Shown here one piece after another: positions 5,643 through 43,594 of a DNA stretch of 64,000 nt. Each line of letters starts with the position of its first letter. Position 1 is the stretch's first letter. The notes under the pieces were generated by a model that had not been told where the DNA came from, did not search any database, and saw only the letters and a program-made list of their open reading frames with translations. The stretch lies in IMG/VR virus record IMGVR_UViG_3300005573_000057, positions 76,450-140,449 of that record; one strand, 5' to 3'. A program made the position numbers and the translations under genes. This DNA is from a virus.

Positions 5643-6119
5643 TCAAATCTGAGGGTAAACCAAGGAAAGATGCTCAAGAACAGCAGACCAATTTGGATAA
5701 AATTGTGATCCAAAATGAATGATTTTTCCAGGAAAATTGGAACAGTTCGCCTTGTGAATCCGATCATCGACAAGAAAATCTCGGTATGATCCAAGAATTC
5801 CCTTGTCTTGAGTCAGGATGATCTTTTTTTGAAGATCCGGCAAATACTCCTTAATCCAATCCACCTTTTCTGCATAGGAGTGCGGAACACTTGGCGGCGG
5901 TTTTGAAGCAACCCAAACATCAAACCCCATTTGTTGTATTTTTGCCACGGAAGCGATTGCATCCGGCATTGGCGGCATTTCCCTAAAAAAATTCGGATGA
6001 TCCATGAACCATTCATCCGTGAAATCATCGTTACCGAGCTTGAATCCAAGATTAACAGCATGCGACTCGAAATCAACCAGTACACCGTCCATATCAATAA
6101 AAATTTTTCGTTGTTTCAT
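5643..6119 (-). CDS. 5'(3')-deoxyribonucleotidase, HAD superfamily
   Basis: IFIDMDGVLVDF, EKVDWI..YLP, LVDD motifs. Confidence 0.9.
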   Translation of the reverse strand: MKQRKIFIDMDGVLVDFESHAVNLGFKLGNDDFTDEWFMDHPNFFREMPPMPDAIASVAKIQQMGFDVWVASKPPPSVPHSYAEKVDWIKEYLPDLQKKIILTQDKGILGSYRDFLVDDRIHKANCSNFPGKIIHFGSQFYPNWSAVLEHLSLVYPQI

Positions 6120-7022: not shown

Positions 7023-8436
7023 CATTTTCGCGTGAAACCTCGGCATTATTGCCGAGTAGGTAGAGCGCAGAACGCTTCGCGTTCGTTGCTTTGTGGCGTA
7101 CCTGTTCACTCTCCTTTTTTGCCACAGTTGAATAACCATAACCATCCGCACGTTGTACCAAAGTACAGTGCTTGTAGGATATGCCTTGAACGACACCCGT
7201 TGCGGTTTGTATATTGAAGTATCCATTTGCACGAACCACTAAGCGCCCAGAATGGATTCCAGATTTCTTACCAGTAGGAACACTGGCCTTAACCATATCA
7301 CCCGTCTGGAAACCTTTGATACTCTTTTTCCTAGTTAGGTATCCACGCGGAAATCCGAATGCATTCAACTGTGTGCGCTGATAGCGTCCTCGACCTGTAC
7401 ACTTAATTGCCAGTGTCGGTCTTTGCCAGCCCGTAACGGAACTAACTCGACCTACGCATACCGCATCAAGCGCGTGTGTTTTCGGAATACCGAGTTGCAT
7501 ACGATTGAATTTCGTCAAACCGCCTGAACCTGTTGTGACCGGAACGTTAACAGCTTTGAGCGCATTGAACAACGCCCAACGGGTTGAATTAACCGCCGAT
7601 GCGTCTTTAAGAGGTCGTTTTGCTTGAGCCAAAATACGATCAAGTCGTTTGGTATCGTTCGCCAAGAATACGCGAACATCCTGCGCACCTTTTTTCTGGT
7701 TGCATGATTGGCAAGCCAAGGCCAGATTCGAGACCCGATTGCTTCCGCCTTTAGATCGAGGATGGATGTGCTCAATCTGTAATGGCACATCTTTTGCACC
7801 GCAGTACGCGCAAACCCTGTTCCACTTGTTGAGCAGATATTCGCGCACTTCATAACCGGCTAATGTGCCTTGTTGATACTCAACACCAGAAATTTCCACA
7901 TTCTGCATTTTTTGCATATCAAACCGAACCAGTTCCTGAGCAATACCAGCAACCGGCACCACACGTTGAAAACGATTGACCCATGCAACGGTTGTATCAA
8001 CCCGGTGTTGTAGAGAAGGAGCTAACCAACCTTTAGGTTTTGTCCGATTGTCGAAACGGGCTGGCCTATACCGCAACTTGGAACGACGAAAACTTCGATG
8101 TTGCCTCCGTGCCGTTAAAGCCTCGCTAATCTGACGCCCGCGATGCAACAATTCAAAAAGATTAAGCACATGGACACCAACACTAATTTCACCACTTTCC
8201 GCATCAATTTTCTCTGATTCTCTGACCACTGCAATACCTGTAAACTTACTACCCGGATCAATTTTTACCTTGATCGGTTGTAATACACAACTGGAAACTT
8301 CACGATCAACAATGCGTATCGAAAACGGGATCAGCCGATGAACACGCGCACGACCAGACGCGAGCAGTTTTTTTGCTCGTTTCTCGCTGCACGGCATCAG
8401 CGGTTTTCCTCGTTTGTCGATTACAAATACTGCCAT
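6988..8436 (-). CDS. iscB: IscB RNA-guided endonuclease (PLMP, split RuvC, HNH)
   Basis: PLMP; IDPGSK (RuvC-I); Arg-rich bridge helix; QELVRFD (RuvC-II); CAYC..EHIHPRSKGGSN..NL..C..CNQKK (HNH); HALDA (RuvC-III). Confidence 0.96.
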   Translation of the reverse strand: MAVFVIDKRGKPLMPCSEKRAKKLLASGRARVHRLIPFSIRIVDREVSSCVLQPIKVKIDPGSKFTGIAVVRESEKIDAESGEISVGVHVLNLFELLHRGRQISEALTARRQHRSFRRSKLRYRPARFDNRTKPKGWLAPSLQHRVDTTVAWVNRFQRVVPVAGIAQELVRFDMQKMQNVEISGVEYQQGTLAGYEVREYLLNKWNRVCAYCGAKDVPLQIEHIHPRSKGGSNRVSNLALACQSCNQKKGAQDVRVFLANDTKRLDRILAQAKRPLKDASAVNSTRWALFNALKAVNVPVTTGSGGLTKFNRMQLGIPKTHALDAVCVGRVSSVTGWQRPTLAIKCTGRGRYQRTQLNAFGFPRGYLTRKKSIKGFQTGDMVKASVPTGKKSGIHSGRLVVRANGYFNIQTATGVVQGISYKHCTLVQRADGYGYSTVAKKESEQVRHKATNAKRSALYLLGNNAEVSRENDESKYASDTHL

Positions 8437-10476: not shown

Positions 10477-11694
10477 TCAACACAAAACATGCTGACTCGC
10501 TTCGGCGGGTTCCTGCTTCACAGAACGGCCTTGCTGCACCGATTCTCCACAGGCTAACAAGCGGTATCCCCGCTCTAAAATGTTAATCGCGCCGACCAAA
10601 TCGGCGTTTTCCTTAAAACCACATTCTACACATGCAAACTTGGCTTGTGTTTGGCGGTTCTCTGCGGCAACATGACCGCAGTGCGGACACGTCTGGCTTG
10701 TGTAATGAGCCGGAACTGGAAGCAGAATGCCACCGTTCCAAGTCATTTTGTATTCCAGTTGTCGCCTGAATTCGTCCCATCCCTGATCGAGAATGGCGCG
10801 ATTCAGTCCAAACTTCTGAGCTACGTTTTTACCCGGTGCTTCGCTATTGCCTTTAGAAGACTTGGACATATTCCGTACCTGCAAATCTTCAATAACAATC
10901 ATAGCGTGGTTTTTGCTGATTGTGGTTGAAGTCTTGTGCAGGAAATCTTTGCGGGCATTAGCGATAGTGCTGTGAATCTTCTGGACTTTAGCTTTCGCCT
11001 TTTTCCAGTTACTACTGAACTTAACCTTTCGAGACATGGCACGTTGGTACCGTGCTAGTCTTTGTTGATGTTTCTTGAAACTGTTAAGCGGTTTAATATA
11101 GCTACCATCGCTCAAGGTAGCAAACCGAGTAATGCCCATGTCGATTCCAATGGCGCTAGTAGCTGTTGGAATAGGTTGTTCAACTTCGCGTTCAGTTTGA
11201 ATACTCACAAACCACTTGTCACCGGCTTTGCTGATAGTGACATTGCGTACATTGCCTAGCACATCACGACTGTTGCGGTAACGCAACCAACCAAGTTTAG
11301 GCAGGTAAATACGGTTGTTGCATTGTTCTAGTTTGATACTTTTCGGGTCTGGATAACGAAAACTGAGGTGTTGCCCTTTTTTCTTGAACTTTGGAAAATC
11401 CGCACGCTTGGCAAAGAAATTGGCATAGGCACGTTCCAAATTCTTGAGCGATTGTTGCAACGGGTGAACAGGAGAATCTCTTAACCACGTAGTATCGGTG
11501 CTGTTGCGCCATTCTGTGAGCATCTTGCACAACCCCGCATAACCAAGCTTTTTCTCGCGTTGCTCGTAACGCTCTTTCTGCATCGCTAAAGCCTTGTTGA
11601 AAACAAACCGGCACGACCCGGCGAAGCTACGCATTTTGCGTTGCTGTTCGCCGTTTGGCATCAGTTCGTATTTGTAGGCTTGTAGACGTTTCAT
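10477..11694 (-). CDS. tnpB: TnpB RNA-guided endonuclease (type A, copy 1)
   Basis: GIDMG, IEDL, TSQTC..C..C..C zinc finger, NADLVGA. Confidence 0.95.
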   Translation of the reverse strand: MKRLQAYKYELMPNGEQQRKMRSFAGSCRFVFNKALAMQKERYEQREKKLGYAGLCKMLTEWRNSTDTTWLRDSPVHPLQQSLKNLERAYANFFAKRADFPKFKKKGQHLSFRYPDPKSIKLEQCNNRIYLPKLGWLRYRNSRDVLGNVRNVTISKAGDKWFVSIQTEREVEQPIPTATSAIGIDMGITRFATLSDGSYIKPLNSFKKHQQRLARYQRAMSRKVKFSSNWKKAKAKVQKIHSTIANARKDFLHKTSTTISKNHAMIVIEDLQVRNMSKSSKGNSEAPGKNVAQKFGLNRAILDQGWDEFRRQLEYKMTWNGGILLPVPAHYTSQTCPHCGHVAAENRQTQAKFACVECGFKENADLVGAINILERGYRLLACGESVQQGRSVKQEPAEASQHVLC

Positions 11695-22081: not shown

Positions 22082-22170
22082 TGGTACACGGAACGGGAGT
22101 CGAACCCGTATGACCTATTAAAGTCGGTGGATTTTAAGTCCACTGTGTCTACCAATTCCACCACCCATGC
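22082..22170 (-). tRNA. tRNA-Leu(TAA)
   Basis: Cloverleaf, GTGGA-CTTAAAA-TCCAC, long variable arm, CCA. Confidence 0.92.
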
Positions 22171-22211
22171 ACTGAATTACTTACTACAAGTAGTTCTACT
22201 ACAATTATAGT

Positions 22212-22287
22212 TGGTGCCGGATACAGGAATCGAACCCACGACCTCCAACTTACAAGGTTGTTGCTCTACCAACTGAGCTAATCCGGC
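22212..22287 (-). tRNA. tRNA-Thr(TGT)
   Basis: GCCGGAT acceptor, CTTGTAA loop, CCA; T-stem has three G-U pairs. Confidence 0.85.
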
Positions 22288-27244: not shown

Positions 27245-27337
27245 TGGCGGGAACCGTGAGACTCGAACTCACACGCCCCTTTCGGGGCCTTCGGTTTTCA
27301 AGGCCGCTGCCGCTAGTCCAACTCGGCTTAGGTTCCC
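27245..27337 (-). tRNA. tRNA-Ser(TGA)
   Basis: Long variable arm GCCCC-GAAA-GGGGC, CTTGAAA loop, GCCA end; two anticodon-stem mismatches. Confidence 0.85.
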
Positions 27338-27346
27338 AATTCTAAA

Positions 27347-27370
27347 TGGTCTGTGTGGTAGGATTTGAAC
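27347..27370 (-). pseudogene. Duplicate 3' fragment of tRNA-Pro
   Basis: tggtctgtgtggtaggatttgaac vs tggtctgtgtggtaggattcgaac at 27559. Confidence 0.75.
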
Positions 27371-27436
27371 TTTTATTCAAAAGTTAAAGCAAACTTACAT
27401 TTTACACCTAAAAGAAGTGGTTTTAGGTGTAATCGG
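27371..27436 (-). mobile_element. Orphan, degenerate left end of a type B TnpB element
   Basis: Aligns with 20588-20654 (ttttattcaaaagt..acttacatt..cacctaaa.ga..ggtttta.gtgtaatcgg). Confidence 0.8.
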
Positions 27437-27445
27437 TTAGATAAT

Positions 27446-27532
27446 TGGTGGGTTGCCAGGGAGTCGAACCCCGTTACTCCGTAGAGCGTCTGATTTACAG
27501 TCAGGTGCATTCGCCAGTGATGCTCGCAACCC
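27446..27532 (-). tRNA. tRNA-Tyr(GTA)
   Basis: CTGA-CTGTAAA-TCAG, variable arm, CCA. Confidence 0.92.
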
Positions 27533-27558
27533 AAAAATCGTGAAAATTAGTTTTCTAA

Positions 27559-27636
27559 TGGTCTGTGTGGTAGGATTCGAACCTACGACAACTCGGCTCC
27601 AAACCGAGGACTCTGGCCAGACTGAGCTACACACAG
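27559..27636 (-). tRNA. tRNA-Pro(TGG)
   Basis: CTCGG-TTTGGAG-CCGAG, CCA. Confidence 0.92.
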
Positions 27637-27659
27637 GTACAAATGACATTGAAACAACT

Positions 27660-27733
27660 TGGAGCGACAACTGAGAATCGAACTCAGGTTAGTAGATTGG
27701 AAATCTACAGTTCTACCATTGAACTACTGTCGC
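27660..27733 (-). tRNA. tRNA-Gly(TCC)
   Basis: GTAGA-TTTCCAA-TCTAC, GCG..CGC-TCCA. Confidence 0.92.
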
Positions 27734-27739
27734 AAATCT

Positions 27740-27815
27740 TGTTGGAACTAGTCGGATTCGAACCGACGACCTTCTGCTTACAAAACAGATGCTCTACCTT
27801 CTGAGCTATAGCTCC
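27740..27815 (-). tRNA. Atypical tRNA: Ala-like body, TGT (Thr) anticodon, ends A-ACA
   Basis: GGAGCTATAGCTCAG..TCTGT-TTTGTAA-GCAGA..TAGTTCC-A-ACA. Confidence 0.7.
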
Positions 27816-27851
27816 AATTCGTTTAATTATTAACAACACTCAAAATTCAAA

Positions 27852-27927
27852 CGGTTGCGGGAGTGGGATTCGAACCCACGGCCTCCGGGGTATGAACCCG
27901 GCGCTCTACCAACTGAGCTATCCCGCG
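27852..27927 (-). tRNA. Initiator tRNA-fMet(CAT), ending CCG
   Basis: C1:A72 mismatch, GGG/CCC anticodon-stem pairs, CAT anticodon. Confidence 0.85.
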
Positions 27928-27951: not shown

Positions 27952-27980
27952 ATTATATCCCACAAACTAACCAATGTCAA
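27952..27980 (-). promoter_or_regulatory. Consensus promoter for the tRNA cluster
   Basis: TTGACA-N17-TATAAT; the -35 box overlaps the upstream TGA stop. Confidence 0.8.
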
Positions 27981-28207
27981 TCTTTATTTAGCTCGGCTTT
28001 CAAAGCAATCACACTAGGAAAATCATCGGCCATATTATCAGAAAGATTTGCCAGATCCCAACCACGAAGGTAAGCATCCAACAACTTATCCACACCACGT
28101 TCAGCCACTACGCACCTACGAAGGAAATCATGATTCAGTGCAGGAGCACGCCCTTTGCCAGCTTTGAAAGCATCAACACCGGCCTTGAATGCATCGTTTA
28201 CGTTCAT
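27977..28207 (-). CDS. Hypothetical protein
   Basis: GGAG RBS; AFKAG..AF..G and AYLRGW (Rmf/CrpP-like pattern). Confidence 0.6.
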   Translation of the reverse strand: MNVNDAFKAGVDAFKAGKGRAPALNHDFLRRCVVAERGVDKLLDAYLRGWDLANLSDNMADDFPSVIALKAELNKD

Positions 28208-28273
28208 AGCAATCTCCATTTTTGCCACAGTTAAAAGGTGGGAGCTTTTCACTCCGCCGGGCCGTGAGGCTCT

Positions 28274-28548
28274 GCCCGTAAGGGCCTAGTGACGGAACCT
28301 TTCGGTTCGCTCCCCTCGCCAATGTTGTAACGCAGCTTCGTCCTTTAAGGGACTTGCGACAAGCTGTTTCGTGCGTACCCTATGCTTGTCTACTCCTGCC
28401 GCTTGCAGAGCAATGGACTGAGGAAGCATCCATTGGTGCGTCTTGTACTTCGTTACAACGTAGTCACGATGTTTTGTGACTGAGGCTGGTCAACCGAGCT
28501 ATCGACCTTGCGGTTTCTAGCTCCGGCCCGAAAGCCGGGGTAGTTGAC
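28274..28548 (-). ncRNA. Stand-alone omegaRNA (HEARO) with no iscB gene
   Basis: Complete scaffold homologous to 8450-8724 with compensatory stem changes; followed by a short linker and partial right end (28213-28273). Confidence 0.88.
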
Positions 28549-28584
28549 ATCAATCTCCATTAGTTTCGATCAACCTACAACTGA

Positions 28585-28612
28585 ATTATACAGCATCTAC
28601 GGAAAAAGTCAA
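28585..28612 (-). promoter_or_regulatory. Early promoter driving guide plus orphan omegaRNA
   Basis: TTGACT-N16-TATAAT, 36 nt upstream of the scaffold. Confidence 0.75.
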
Positions 28613-29445
28613 GAAGGAATTTTCTTGTTTTCGAAGACCCAAGCATTCCCAGAGACCCGAGTATTCTTAGATACCACACCATCATCATAAACCCGAGAAT
28701 TCCCATAGACCCGAGCATTCCCACAGATCAGAGCATTCCCACAGATCAGAGGATTCCCGTAGACCCGAGCATTCCCATAGACCTGAGCATCATCGAAGAC
28801 CCAAGCATTCTCAGAGACCTTAGCATCATCATAGATCCAAACATACCCGTAGACCCGAGCATTTCCGTAGACCCGAGCATTCCAAGAGACCCAAGCATTC
28901 CCGTAAATCCGGGCATTCTTGTAGACCCGAGCGTCCTTGTAAACCTGAGAATTGCCGTAGACATTAGCATCCCCATAGACCTGAGCGTTCCCAAAGACTA
29001 AAGCATACCCATAGACCCGAGCATGATCGAAGACCGAAGCGTTCCCGAAGACCCGAGCATGATCGAAGACCCAAGCGTTCCCATAGACCCGAGCATGTTC
29101 GAAGGCGAAAGCACCCCCGTAAACCCGAGCATTATCGTAAACAAAAGCGTTTTCAGATACTAGAGCGTCCCTGTAGACCTCTGCATTCCCGAAGACCCGA
29201 GCATTTCCACATACCTCGGCATTTTCGGATATTTGGGCATCCTCATAGACTAGAGCATTATCAAAAACACAAGCATTCCCCGAAACCCAGCAGTTTCCCT
29301 CGTGACTCAAATTCTTTTTAGATTCGAGATAACCGCCTTTGTCGCCAGAACGAACATCACCAAAATCGCGCAAAGCGCGGATACGGTAAAGCACACGACC
29401 ACCGACTTCAATGCTTTCGTCTTTCAACAATTCGTACTTTTTCAT
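28609..29445 (-). CDS. Hexapeptide-repeat protein, paralog 3 (longest)
   Basis: Same N-terminal module, more hexads (ARVYGN). Confidence 0.82.
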   Translation of the reverse strand: MKKYELLKDESIEVGGRVLYRIRALRDFGDVRSGDKGGYLESKKNLSHEGNCWVSGNACVFDNALVYEDAQISENAEVCGNARVFGNAEVYRDALVSENAFVYDNARVYGGAFAFEHARVYGNAWVFDHARVFGNASVFDHARVYGYALVFGNAQVYGDANVYGNSQVYKDARVYKNARIYGNAWVSWNARVYGNARVYGYVWIYDDAKVSENAWVFDDAQVYGNARVYGNPLICGNALICGNARVYGNSRVYDDGVVSKNTRVSGNAWVFENKKIPS

Positions 29446-29479
29446 CACAAATTCCTAAAAAATCAAGCTAGTGAATTAG

Positions 29480-42895: not shown

Positions 42896-43594
42896 ATGAA
42901 AACATTCAAAGAATACTTGTTGGAAGCAACAACTGTTGTACAACAAGATGCAACCCCCTATGTCAATGCTGTTGCTCTATTGCGAAAATGGTTTGATGGT
43001 GATTATATGGCAATGGATCAGTCAACCTTTAGTTCGAGTCAACAAAAACTGGTCGATGCATTCAAGTTGTTTACAGACTATATCAAACCAGCAAATTTCG
43101 GCCCATCGACTTTGTATCGCGTCTTTCCAGAAGATCATTTGAAACAGTTTCTATCAGACAGTGATGTCAAGAAGTCCGAATCTTACACACAAGGAGACAA
43201 AAAAAGATTTTACAATGCGGTTCTCAAAGGAAAGAACGTCGATTTATCAACTGGAATCAAAGAAATCCAAAGTTGGACTGAATCTTTGAGTTCGGTAAAA
43301 ACTTTTCACCGAGATATTCATTTTCATCAAAAACAACATGAATGGTTTTTTCTTGTTAAAAGTTCATTTTCTGATAGCGAAAAACTATTCTACTATGGTA
43401 TGTTTACACCAATTATAGATAAACTTAACGATTTTGATTACACTACTACAAAACTCAATCAGAAATGGCATGATGTTTTATTCGATTTTATTTATTTAAG
43501 ACAGTCATATGAAAACCAAAAGGAAACAGTAGTTGATACCCATCAACCAAGAGAAGTTGAAATTCTTGAGGTTACTAATCCCCTTCACGCATGA
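42896..43594 (+). CDS. Paralog of the previous gene, ART-like internal head protein
   Basis: MKTFKEYLLE; TLYRV, IQSWTES, NQKETVV. Confidence 0.6.
   Translation: MKTFKEYLLEATTVVQQDATPYVNAVALLRKWFDGDYMAMDQSTFSSSQQKLVDAFKLFTDYIKPANFGPSTLYRVFPEDHLKQFLSDSDVKKSESYTQGDKKRFYNAVLKGKNVDLSTGIKEIQSWTESLSSVKTFHRDIHFHQKQHEWFFLVKSSFSDSEKLFYYGMFTPIIDKLNDFDYTTTKLNQKWHDVLFDFIYLRQSYENQKETVVDTHQPREVEILEVTNPLHA

Follow-up and report, generated by a model that had tools for sequence, protein, structure and literature searches.

What does a complete guide-RNA scaffold do in a phage genome when no nuclease gene stands behind it? The question is raised by a 64,000-nucleotide stretch (the window, whose numbering we use unless another record is named) of a 140-kb IMG/VR phage record that carries T4-like replication genes. 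On the minus strand, at 28274-28548, lies an omegaRNA scaffold of the IscB type, and the single intact IscB of the genome is encoded about 20 kb away. Our comparisons show that the scaffold belongs to a derivative of an ISC element (IscB-encoding, IS200/IS605 superfamily) that lacks iscB, and that this derivative was inserted precisely between a small gene's ribosome-binding site and its ATG. We further propose an origin for the near-repeat that flanks it and a function for its RNA in trans. Taken as a whole, this account of insertion, repeat and function is in our judgment as apt to be right as wrong, and its parts differ in strength.

An intact scaffold in a family of related elements

The Rfam HEARO covariance model (RF02033; 211 positions, gathering cut-off 83 bits) matches the minus strand from 28548 to 28305 over its entire length (93.1 bits, E 1.1e-17, model positions 1-211, not truncated), and an additional conserved hairpin extends the scaffold to about 28274. 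The search thus bears out the initial annotation, which had called the scaffold complete. HEARO RNA was reportedly described by Weinberg in 2010 and the IscB omegaRNA by Altae-Tran in 2021; the RNA studied here resembles them in its full-length model match, its pseudoknot and its conserved hairpin. All 58 columns that are invariant among 11 IscB-linked omegaRNAs are retained, and the scaffold departs at 7 of the 98 columns of 90% conservation, which is within the range of IscB-linked scaffolds of that subtype. Identity is 73% to the omegaRNA cognate to the resident IscB and 74% to that of L024, an IMG/VR locus in which an omegaRNA of the same subtype adjoins iscB; the IscB of L024 is 68% identical to the resident protein, the top value in the comparison set. 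Three two-sided helix differences from the cognate RNA, previously noted as compensatory changes, are indeed visible. Since both scaffold subtypes adjoin iscB in other phages, these changes do not show selection after the loss of iscB; they separate two scaffold subtypes, each apparently working with IscBs of the resident clade, and do not exclude cross-loading by the resident IscB. In a freshwater metatranscriptome contig (run X4) that is about 92% like this subtype over 28308-28500 and has different flanks, three base pairs of the conserved hairpin stem are exchanged, each with full compensation.

That no iscB lies behind the scaffold also held: the next open reading frame is a 76-aa gene at 28207-27977 on the minus strand, and tblastn with the resident IscB as query gave no match in the 3.2 kb downstream. 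Unlike other HEARO/IscB omegaRNAs, this one runs into a tail that is common to iscB-less mini-elements (28273-28233, minus strand), a GC hairpin at 28255-28241 followed by a T-run at 28236-28233, and then into 20 nt of the 3' coding end of iscB (28232-28213, minus strand). This remnant matches 7129-7110 inside the intact iscB, and also sister mini-elements at 661-642 of the window and 64446-64427 of G000. The hairpin and T-run resemble a weak terminator and probably mark the 3' end of the omegaRNA; they score under the threshold of a terminator scan. The hairpin is conserved, with two-sided changes at none of its four pairs in a covariation test, and sister copies diverge by several per cent in the tail they share. 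From a second hot-spring sample comes a contig that agrees with the window at every position of 28062-28641. In the contigs of four sequencing runs we found no junction that skips 28548-28208; the sole RNA run among the four contains a relative of the scaffold at about 92% with other flanks, and so is silent on transcription at this locus.

The intact element of the same genome occupies 8724-6988 on the minus strand and is the only one of its kind there, with an omegaRNA at 8724-8460 and iscB at 8436-6988. RF02033 matches 8724-8483 (minus strand, 98.3 bits) directly upstream of the 482-aa reading frame, whose product has RRXRR (E 4.7e-67) and HNH (E 4.3e-14) domains, with RuvC and HNH motifs visible in the translation; it is the single RRXRR match in the genome, and the earlier claim of an intact IscB 20 kb away is confirmed. 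The element ends on its left near 7023, and next to it a DUF6433 gene begins with ATGAAT (7022-7017). The third full omegaRNA of the genome is a second complete orphan (G000 64761-64521, 107.5 bits), which lies outside the window, lacks iscB and precedes an RNA-ligase gene. Two lesser copies belong to the same family. One, at 700-553 (minus strand), was recognised by comparison with sister copies and has kept only the 3' part of a mini-element, from the tail through the iscB 3' remnant to the left-end hairpins; it lacks an omegaRNA and abuts a hexapeptide-repeat gene at its first bases, ATGAAC (552-547). The other is a 5' fragment of 50 nt at G000 43185-43235. Both complete orphans share the GC hairpin, T-run and iscB remnant of about 20 nt, a tail that is absent from the intact copy, and the second orphan and the 700-553 remnant run on into left-end hairpins like those that end the intact element. 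The 3' junction could be mapped for four copies in the genome, and in each of them it borders on ATGAA with T or C as the next base; in principle, therefore, a single IscB could serve every guide. At the second orphan we also observed (L001:1320-1311, minus strand; G000 about 64340) that the element stands 4 nt inside the RNA-ligase gene and closes with the same 6 nt in which its 5' flank ends, which restores an in-frame ATG to that gene.

A search of the 140-kb record (79% complete) for the Y1 (TnpA) transposase with PF01797 gave no match; the host may hold a copy. An intact TnpB (OrfB_IS605 and Cas12f1-like TNB domains) is encoded at 10477-11694 on the minus strand, 2 kb from iscB, and the phage therefore carries both types of OMEGA nuclease, IscB and TnpB, without a Y1 transposase.

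Protein-less copies are found in other phages as well. A search of IMG/VR with a conserved 17-nt motif, a sampling biased to intact scaffolds, yielded about 30 omegaRNA loci, most of which precede iscB; the orphans in the sample number about eight. The tail of one (L013) is the same as that of the copy at 28548, and in another (L016) iscB has been precisely deleted and the next gene takes over its Shine-Dalgarno sequence and ATG. Four more (L051, L077, L086 and L090; 124-142 bits) consist of omegaRNA, GC hairpin and T-run, left-end hairpin and ATGAA. Two of these come from records rated 100% and 99% complete (L086:4156-4540, plus strand, 137.5 bits; L090:3724-4080, plus strand, 141.8 bits), and a search of five orphan-bearing viral records, these two among them and the other three small fragments, found no IscB with a procedure validated on the genome of the window. 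The protein-less form is thus a non-autonomous lineage that recurs in unrelated phage contigs, and no one-off scar. By the same token, with intact orphans present in complete phage genomes that lack IscB, an intact scaffold is no evidence of use by a resident IscB. Most extra matches to the 17-nt motif were coincidences in coding sequence and were discarded.

Some of the other loci have unusual arrangements. One 16-kb viral contig carries three tandem IscB elements (L009:262-7000, plus strand), and at L015:923-1434 (plus strand) an omegaRNA is inserted within the first stem region of another omegaRNA.

Insertion at the start of a small early gene

Upstream of the scaffold stands a sigma70-type promoter at 28612-28585 on the minus strand (TTGACT, 16-nt spacer, TATAAT; 11/12). 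Two short metagenome contigs, L026 and L027, encode homologues of the 76-aa product with 88% and 84% identity and share with the window both promoter hexamers, the first 14 nt of the leader and the small gene, all without an omegaRNA. In L026 the leader and its Shine-Dalgarno sequence are almost as in the window and are joined straight to ATGAAC. The promoter and the presumed guide are therefore native to the small gene (27977-28207, minus strand; an early gene of no Pfam family). What now occupies the guide position, directly 5' of the scaffold, is the native leader of that gene (28584-28549, minus strand), with the Shine-Dalgarno motif GGAG at 28558-28555. The initial annotation had credited the RNA with a promoter of its own and a 5' guide of about 30 nt; the motif is there and would transcribe the leader together with the scaffold, so the placement of the guide stands, but promoter and leader belong to the small gene and not to an RNA gene.

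The first six bases of the small gene, ATGAAC (28207-28202), are the insertion target. ISC elements, whose 5' end is GT(CA), insert at N|ATGA and produce no target duplication (PMC4810608). With the two element-free contigs as reference, the element at 28548 likewise has a 5'-GT terminus and lies immediately 5' of ATGA. By this target-site rule ATGAAC is the presumptive TAM. A distant homologue of the small protein in IMG/VR, L004, also starts with ATGAAC; it was the only homologue in a scan of that database with the small protein. A scan of JGI metagenomes with an alignment of the small protein as query gave no match, and BLAST of 3 kb around the site against GenBank phages gave no relative of the locus. 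The hexapeptide (YdcK beta-solenoid) repeat gene that precedes the promoter, at 28609-29448 on the minus strand, has its stop codon overlapping the -35 element (28607-28612), and this cassette of hexapeptide gene and promoter recurs at G000 43240-43330 and in L027.

The components of the locus are all familiar from other systems: the HEARO/omegaRNA itself, targeting of N|ATGA, transcription of the guide from outside the element, and protein-less mini-elements that need a nuclease in trans. In IscB systems the guide is the DNA 5' of the right end of the transposon and transcription must come from outside the element (Meers 2023), and the arrangement at 28548 is of this kind, with flanking DNA in the guide position directly 5' of the scaffold. 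The genome encodes no transposase, which is a further likeness to the ISC transposons of Kapitonov, Makarova and Koonin (2016, PMC4810608). The element differs from those in residing in a T4-like phage as opposed to a bacterial chromosome, in having lost its left-end hairpins and in having a 13-nt near-repeat at its flanks, a feature that does not arise from ISC insertion itself. A parallel is provided by PATEs, which are IS200/IS605 mini-elements of the non-autonomous kind; that they carry omegaRNAs to be used in trans is an accepted idea (Meers 2023). The element at 28548 is similarly protein-less, keeps a guide-RNA scaffold and would need a nuclease encoded elsewhere, and its sister copies L001, L086 and L090 retain both ends. 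Unlike the described PATEs, which are TnpB-type, its RNA is IscB-type with a terminator-like hairpin, and unlike them it lacks one end and is not mobilisable. Less familiar, then, are the residence in a phage, the IscB-type mini-element with its terminator-like hairpin, and a re-created ribosome-binding site that leaves a near-self target with a seed mismatch.

Origin of the near-repeat

The small gene is now preceded by a second copy of its native ribosome-binding site at 28220-28208 (minus strand), identical to 28561-28549 at 12 of 13 positions, the single difference falling 2 nt from the ATG. Extended to 16 nt, the match is 13/16, with mismatches at positions 2, 14 and 15 counted from ATGAA. 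Elsewhere in the 140-kb genome the 13-mer occurs, with up to one mismatch, only as two element-internal copies in sister elements, and a search with all three guides of the genome for guide followed by ATGA returned this self-site as its only match. The initial annotation took the match for a target of the guide; the repeat is real, and it has taken the place of the left end of the element and does not point to an evolved target. It stands where the sister copies have left-end hairpins. These subterminal hairpins, which Y1 recognises, are present in the intact copy, in the second orphan and at 700-553 and are absent from the copy at 28548, which is accordingly unable to transpose. The complete mini-elements L086 and L090 have no flank repeat, which is why we regard the repeat as secondary.

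How might a ribosome-binding site have come to replace the left end? The iscB remnant of the sister copies contains a Shine-Dalgarno-like stretch that is 12/13 identical to the native binding site. The most likely origin is recombination with an element-free allele, with the crossover at that stretch. An illegitimate or short-homology crossover of this kind would delete the left end and return a working ribosome-binding site to the small gene, and the product would be kept because translation of the small gene was restored. Given such a crossover, the flank duplication follows automatically, and a guide that matches a ribosome-binding site next to ATGA is its by-product. Against this origin, the likeness of the native site to the element-internal stretch is greater than a crossover strictly needs. 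Two nt from the ATG, the guide-side copy and L026 have A and the TAM-side copy has C, so the C looks derived; it may reflect escape from self-cutting or a polymorphism of the partner allele.

We asked whether likeness between guide and leader is a general rule, and rejected it: among 18 IscB-linked elements, self scores equal non-self scores, with the exception of L018. In that element (L018:4207-3920, minus strand) the 5' flank aligns with the Shine-Dalgarno leader of its own iscB at a local score of 11, the non-self maximum being 9, and at L016:6608-6330 (minus strand) the 16 nt 5' of the omegaRNA resemble the iscB Shine-Dalgarno leader of the same element at 15 positions. The two elements stand at unrelated sites, likeness of this degree is well beyond chance in both, and nested insertion or carry-over of flanking DNA is possible. 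A second target had been proposed before the gene starting at 6119. The site exists, with 9 of 10 TAM-proximal bases matched and hardly any further ones; given 1535 ATGA sites in the genome, many of them after GGAG, we dismiss the match as being at about chance level.

Possible trans use and its alternatives

We consider it plausible, at a probability slightly short of even, that the resident IscB uses this RNA in trans against element-free alleles. The promoter of the small gene would transcribe the leader as 5' guide, the omegaRNA scaffold, the hairpin and T-run and the small gene. For as long as the scaffold remains intact, the only intact IscB of the phage would load the RNA in trans, and the complex would cut alleles of co-infecting relatives in which the native leader is followed by ATGAAC. 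Recombinational repair after cutting would spread the locus, with inheritance biased by homing or marker exclusion, and the re-created self-site would escape through its mismatch 2 nt from the TAM. The evidence in favour comprises the 58 preserved invariant columns, an IscB with RRXRR and HNH domains, a promoter with 11/12, the derived C in the self-site, the 68% identity of the L024 IscB to the resident one and the unchanged arrangement in the second hot-spring sample; against it stand the 73% identity to the cognate scaffold, the loss of the left end and the decaying copies in the same genome. Element-free alleles in relatives, as the initial annotation had supposed, do exist; its perfect targets were not among them. 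Neither of the two known alleles matches guide and TAM perfectly, since two extra nt interrupt L026 at 6 nt from the start and the ribosome-binding site of L027 is a different one.

The reading that competes most closely is that the element is inert, a recent remnant that has yet to decay, is transcribed as a long structured leader and goes unused by IscB, with the repeat and its single mismatch as accidents of the repair of the ribosome-binding site. We regard this as nearly as likely as trans use. Copies of the family at successive stages of decay lie in this genome (the 3'-end-only copy at 700-553, the 50-nt fragment), which in part bears out the neutral decay that the earlier reading had named as its own undoing; the scaffold at 28548, for its part, has lost none of the invariant positions, even though the tail differs by several per cent among sister copies. 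The missing left end, the failure to find a Y1 transposase in a record that is 79% complete, the element-free state of the two nearest relatives, L026 and L027, the intact orphans of complete IscB-less phage genomes and a scaffold subtype unlike that of the resident cognate are all as expected of a remnant. Against inertness, phage genomes usually purge useless DNA, and 340 nt of it would have to have survived here; the persistence of the mini-element architecture across very divergent phages suggests a lineage that is maintained; and the derived mismatch falls in the TAM-proximal seed. If the RNA is inert, the locus is an ordinary case of transposon decay.

Two further readings keep the RNA functional without cleavage. 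In one, improbable in our estimate, the structured leader acts in cis, independently of IscB, as an attenuator or stabiliser that sets how strongly the small gene and the tRNA cluster behind it are expressed. The hairpin and T-run do lie between the gene and its only promoter (the next is at 27980-27952), so that expression needs read-through; they are, however, a trait of the mobile family and not of this locus, they fall under the terminator-scan threshold, and element-free alleles express the small gene with no hairpin at all. In the other, IscB would bind the re-created site, and perhaps that at 6119, without cutting and so tune transcription or translation, after the models of tracr-L/Cas9 and TldR. 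The initial annotation had offered this use too, and we give it hardly any weight. A 13/16 match adjoining ATGAA at the start of the gene itself is what such a regulator would use, but the guide is of mRNA sense and could pair with DNA only, and the mismatch is TAM-proximal, where R-loop formation begins. Tested against TldR, the resident IscB has kept its nuclease domains and the match at the start region is accounted for by the history of repair; the 6119 site is chance, and the 18 IscB-linked elements display no general likeness of guide to leader. We favor use in trans for cleavage, with inert debris close behind.

We know of no demonstration that OMEGA nucleases home between co-infecting phages. 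Such homing has been proposed in a review that also discusses 'transposon non-restorative homing' (PMC13565253). Trans use as proposed here would resemble the homing endonucleases and marker exclusion of phages treated there, in that the element-free allele of a co-infecting relative is cut and repaired from the element-bearing genome. It would differ from them in that specificity comes from an RNA guide taken from the leader of the interrupted gene and in that the nuclease gene lies 20 kb from the homing site. A broader and more doubtful conjecture is that one IscB and several omegaRNA mini-elements at gene starts form a multiplexed RNA-guided system for homing or exclusion. Each mini-element would have the leader of the interrupted gene as guide and the ATGAA start of that gene as TAM; element-free alleles of co-infecting relatives would be destroyed or converted; the TAM-proximal mismatch at a re-created site would be an escape from self-cutting; and, by extension, the intact mini-elements of IscB-less phages would borrow an IscB of the host.

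For the question of what IscB and omegaRNA do away from bacterial chromosomes, this genome is a compact test case, with one nuclease, three guides, defined element-free alleles and a self-site with a single seed mismatch. The guides of the family resemble ribosome-binding sites because the elements insert 5' of ATGA start codons, and the locus illustrates that phages can mend the damage of an insertion by making a ribosome-binding site anew. The type of the tmRNA points to a betaproteobacterial host: it is a permuted, two-piece, betaproteobacterial-type RNA at 29786-29472 on the minus strand (152.5 and 148.1 bits) with the tag ANDEVYAQAIAA. The tRNAs, eight in total, lie at 27245-27927 and 22082-22287. 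Cultured phages with unannotated IscB and omegaRNA, which would permit crosses, exist for Ralstonia: phages Adzire (L104:2502-4230, plus strand) and Heva (L105:2429-4157, plus strand) each carry an omegaRNA (120 bits) followed by a 'hypothetical protein' of 471 or 458 aa, which in Adzire is an IscB with RRXRR and HNH domains and which neither record annotates as such.
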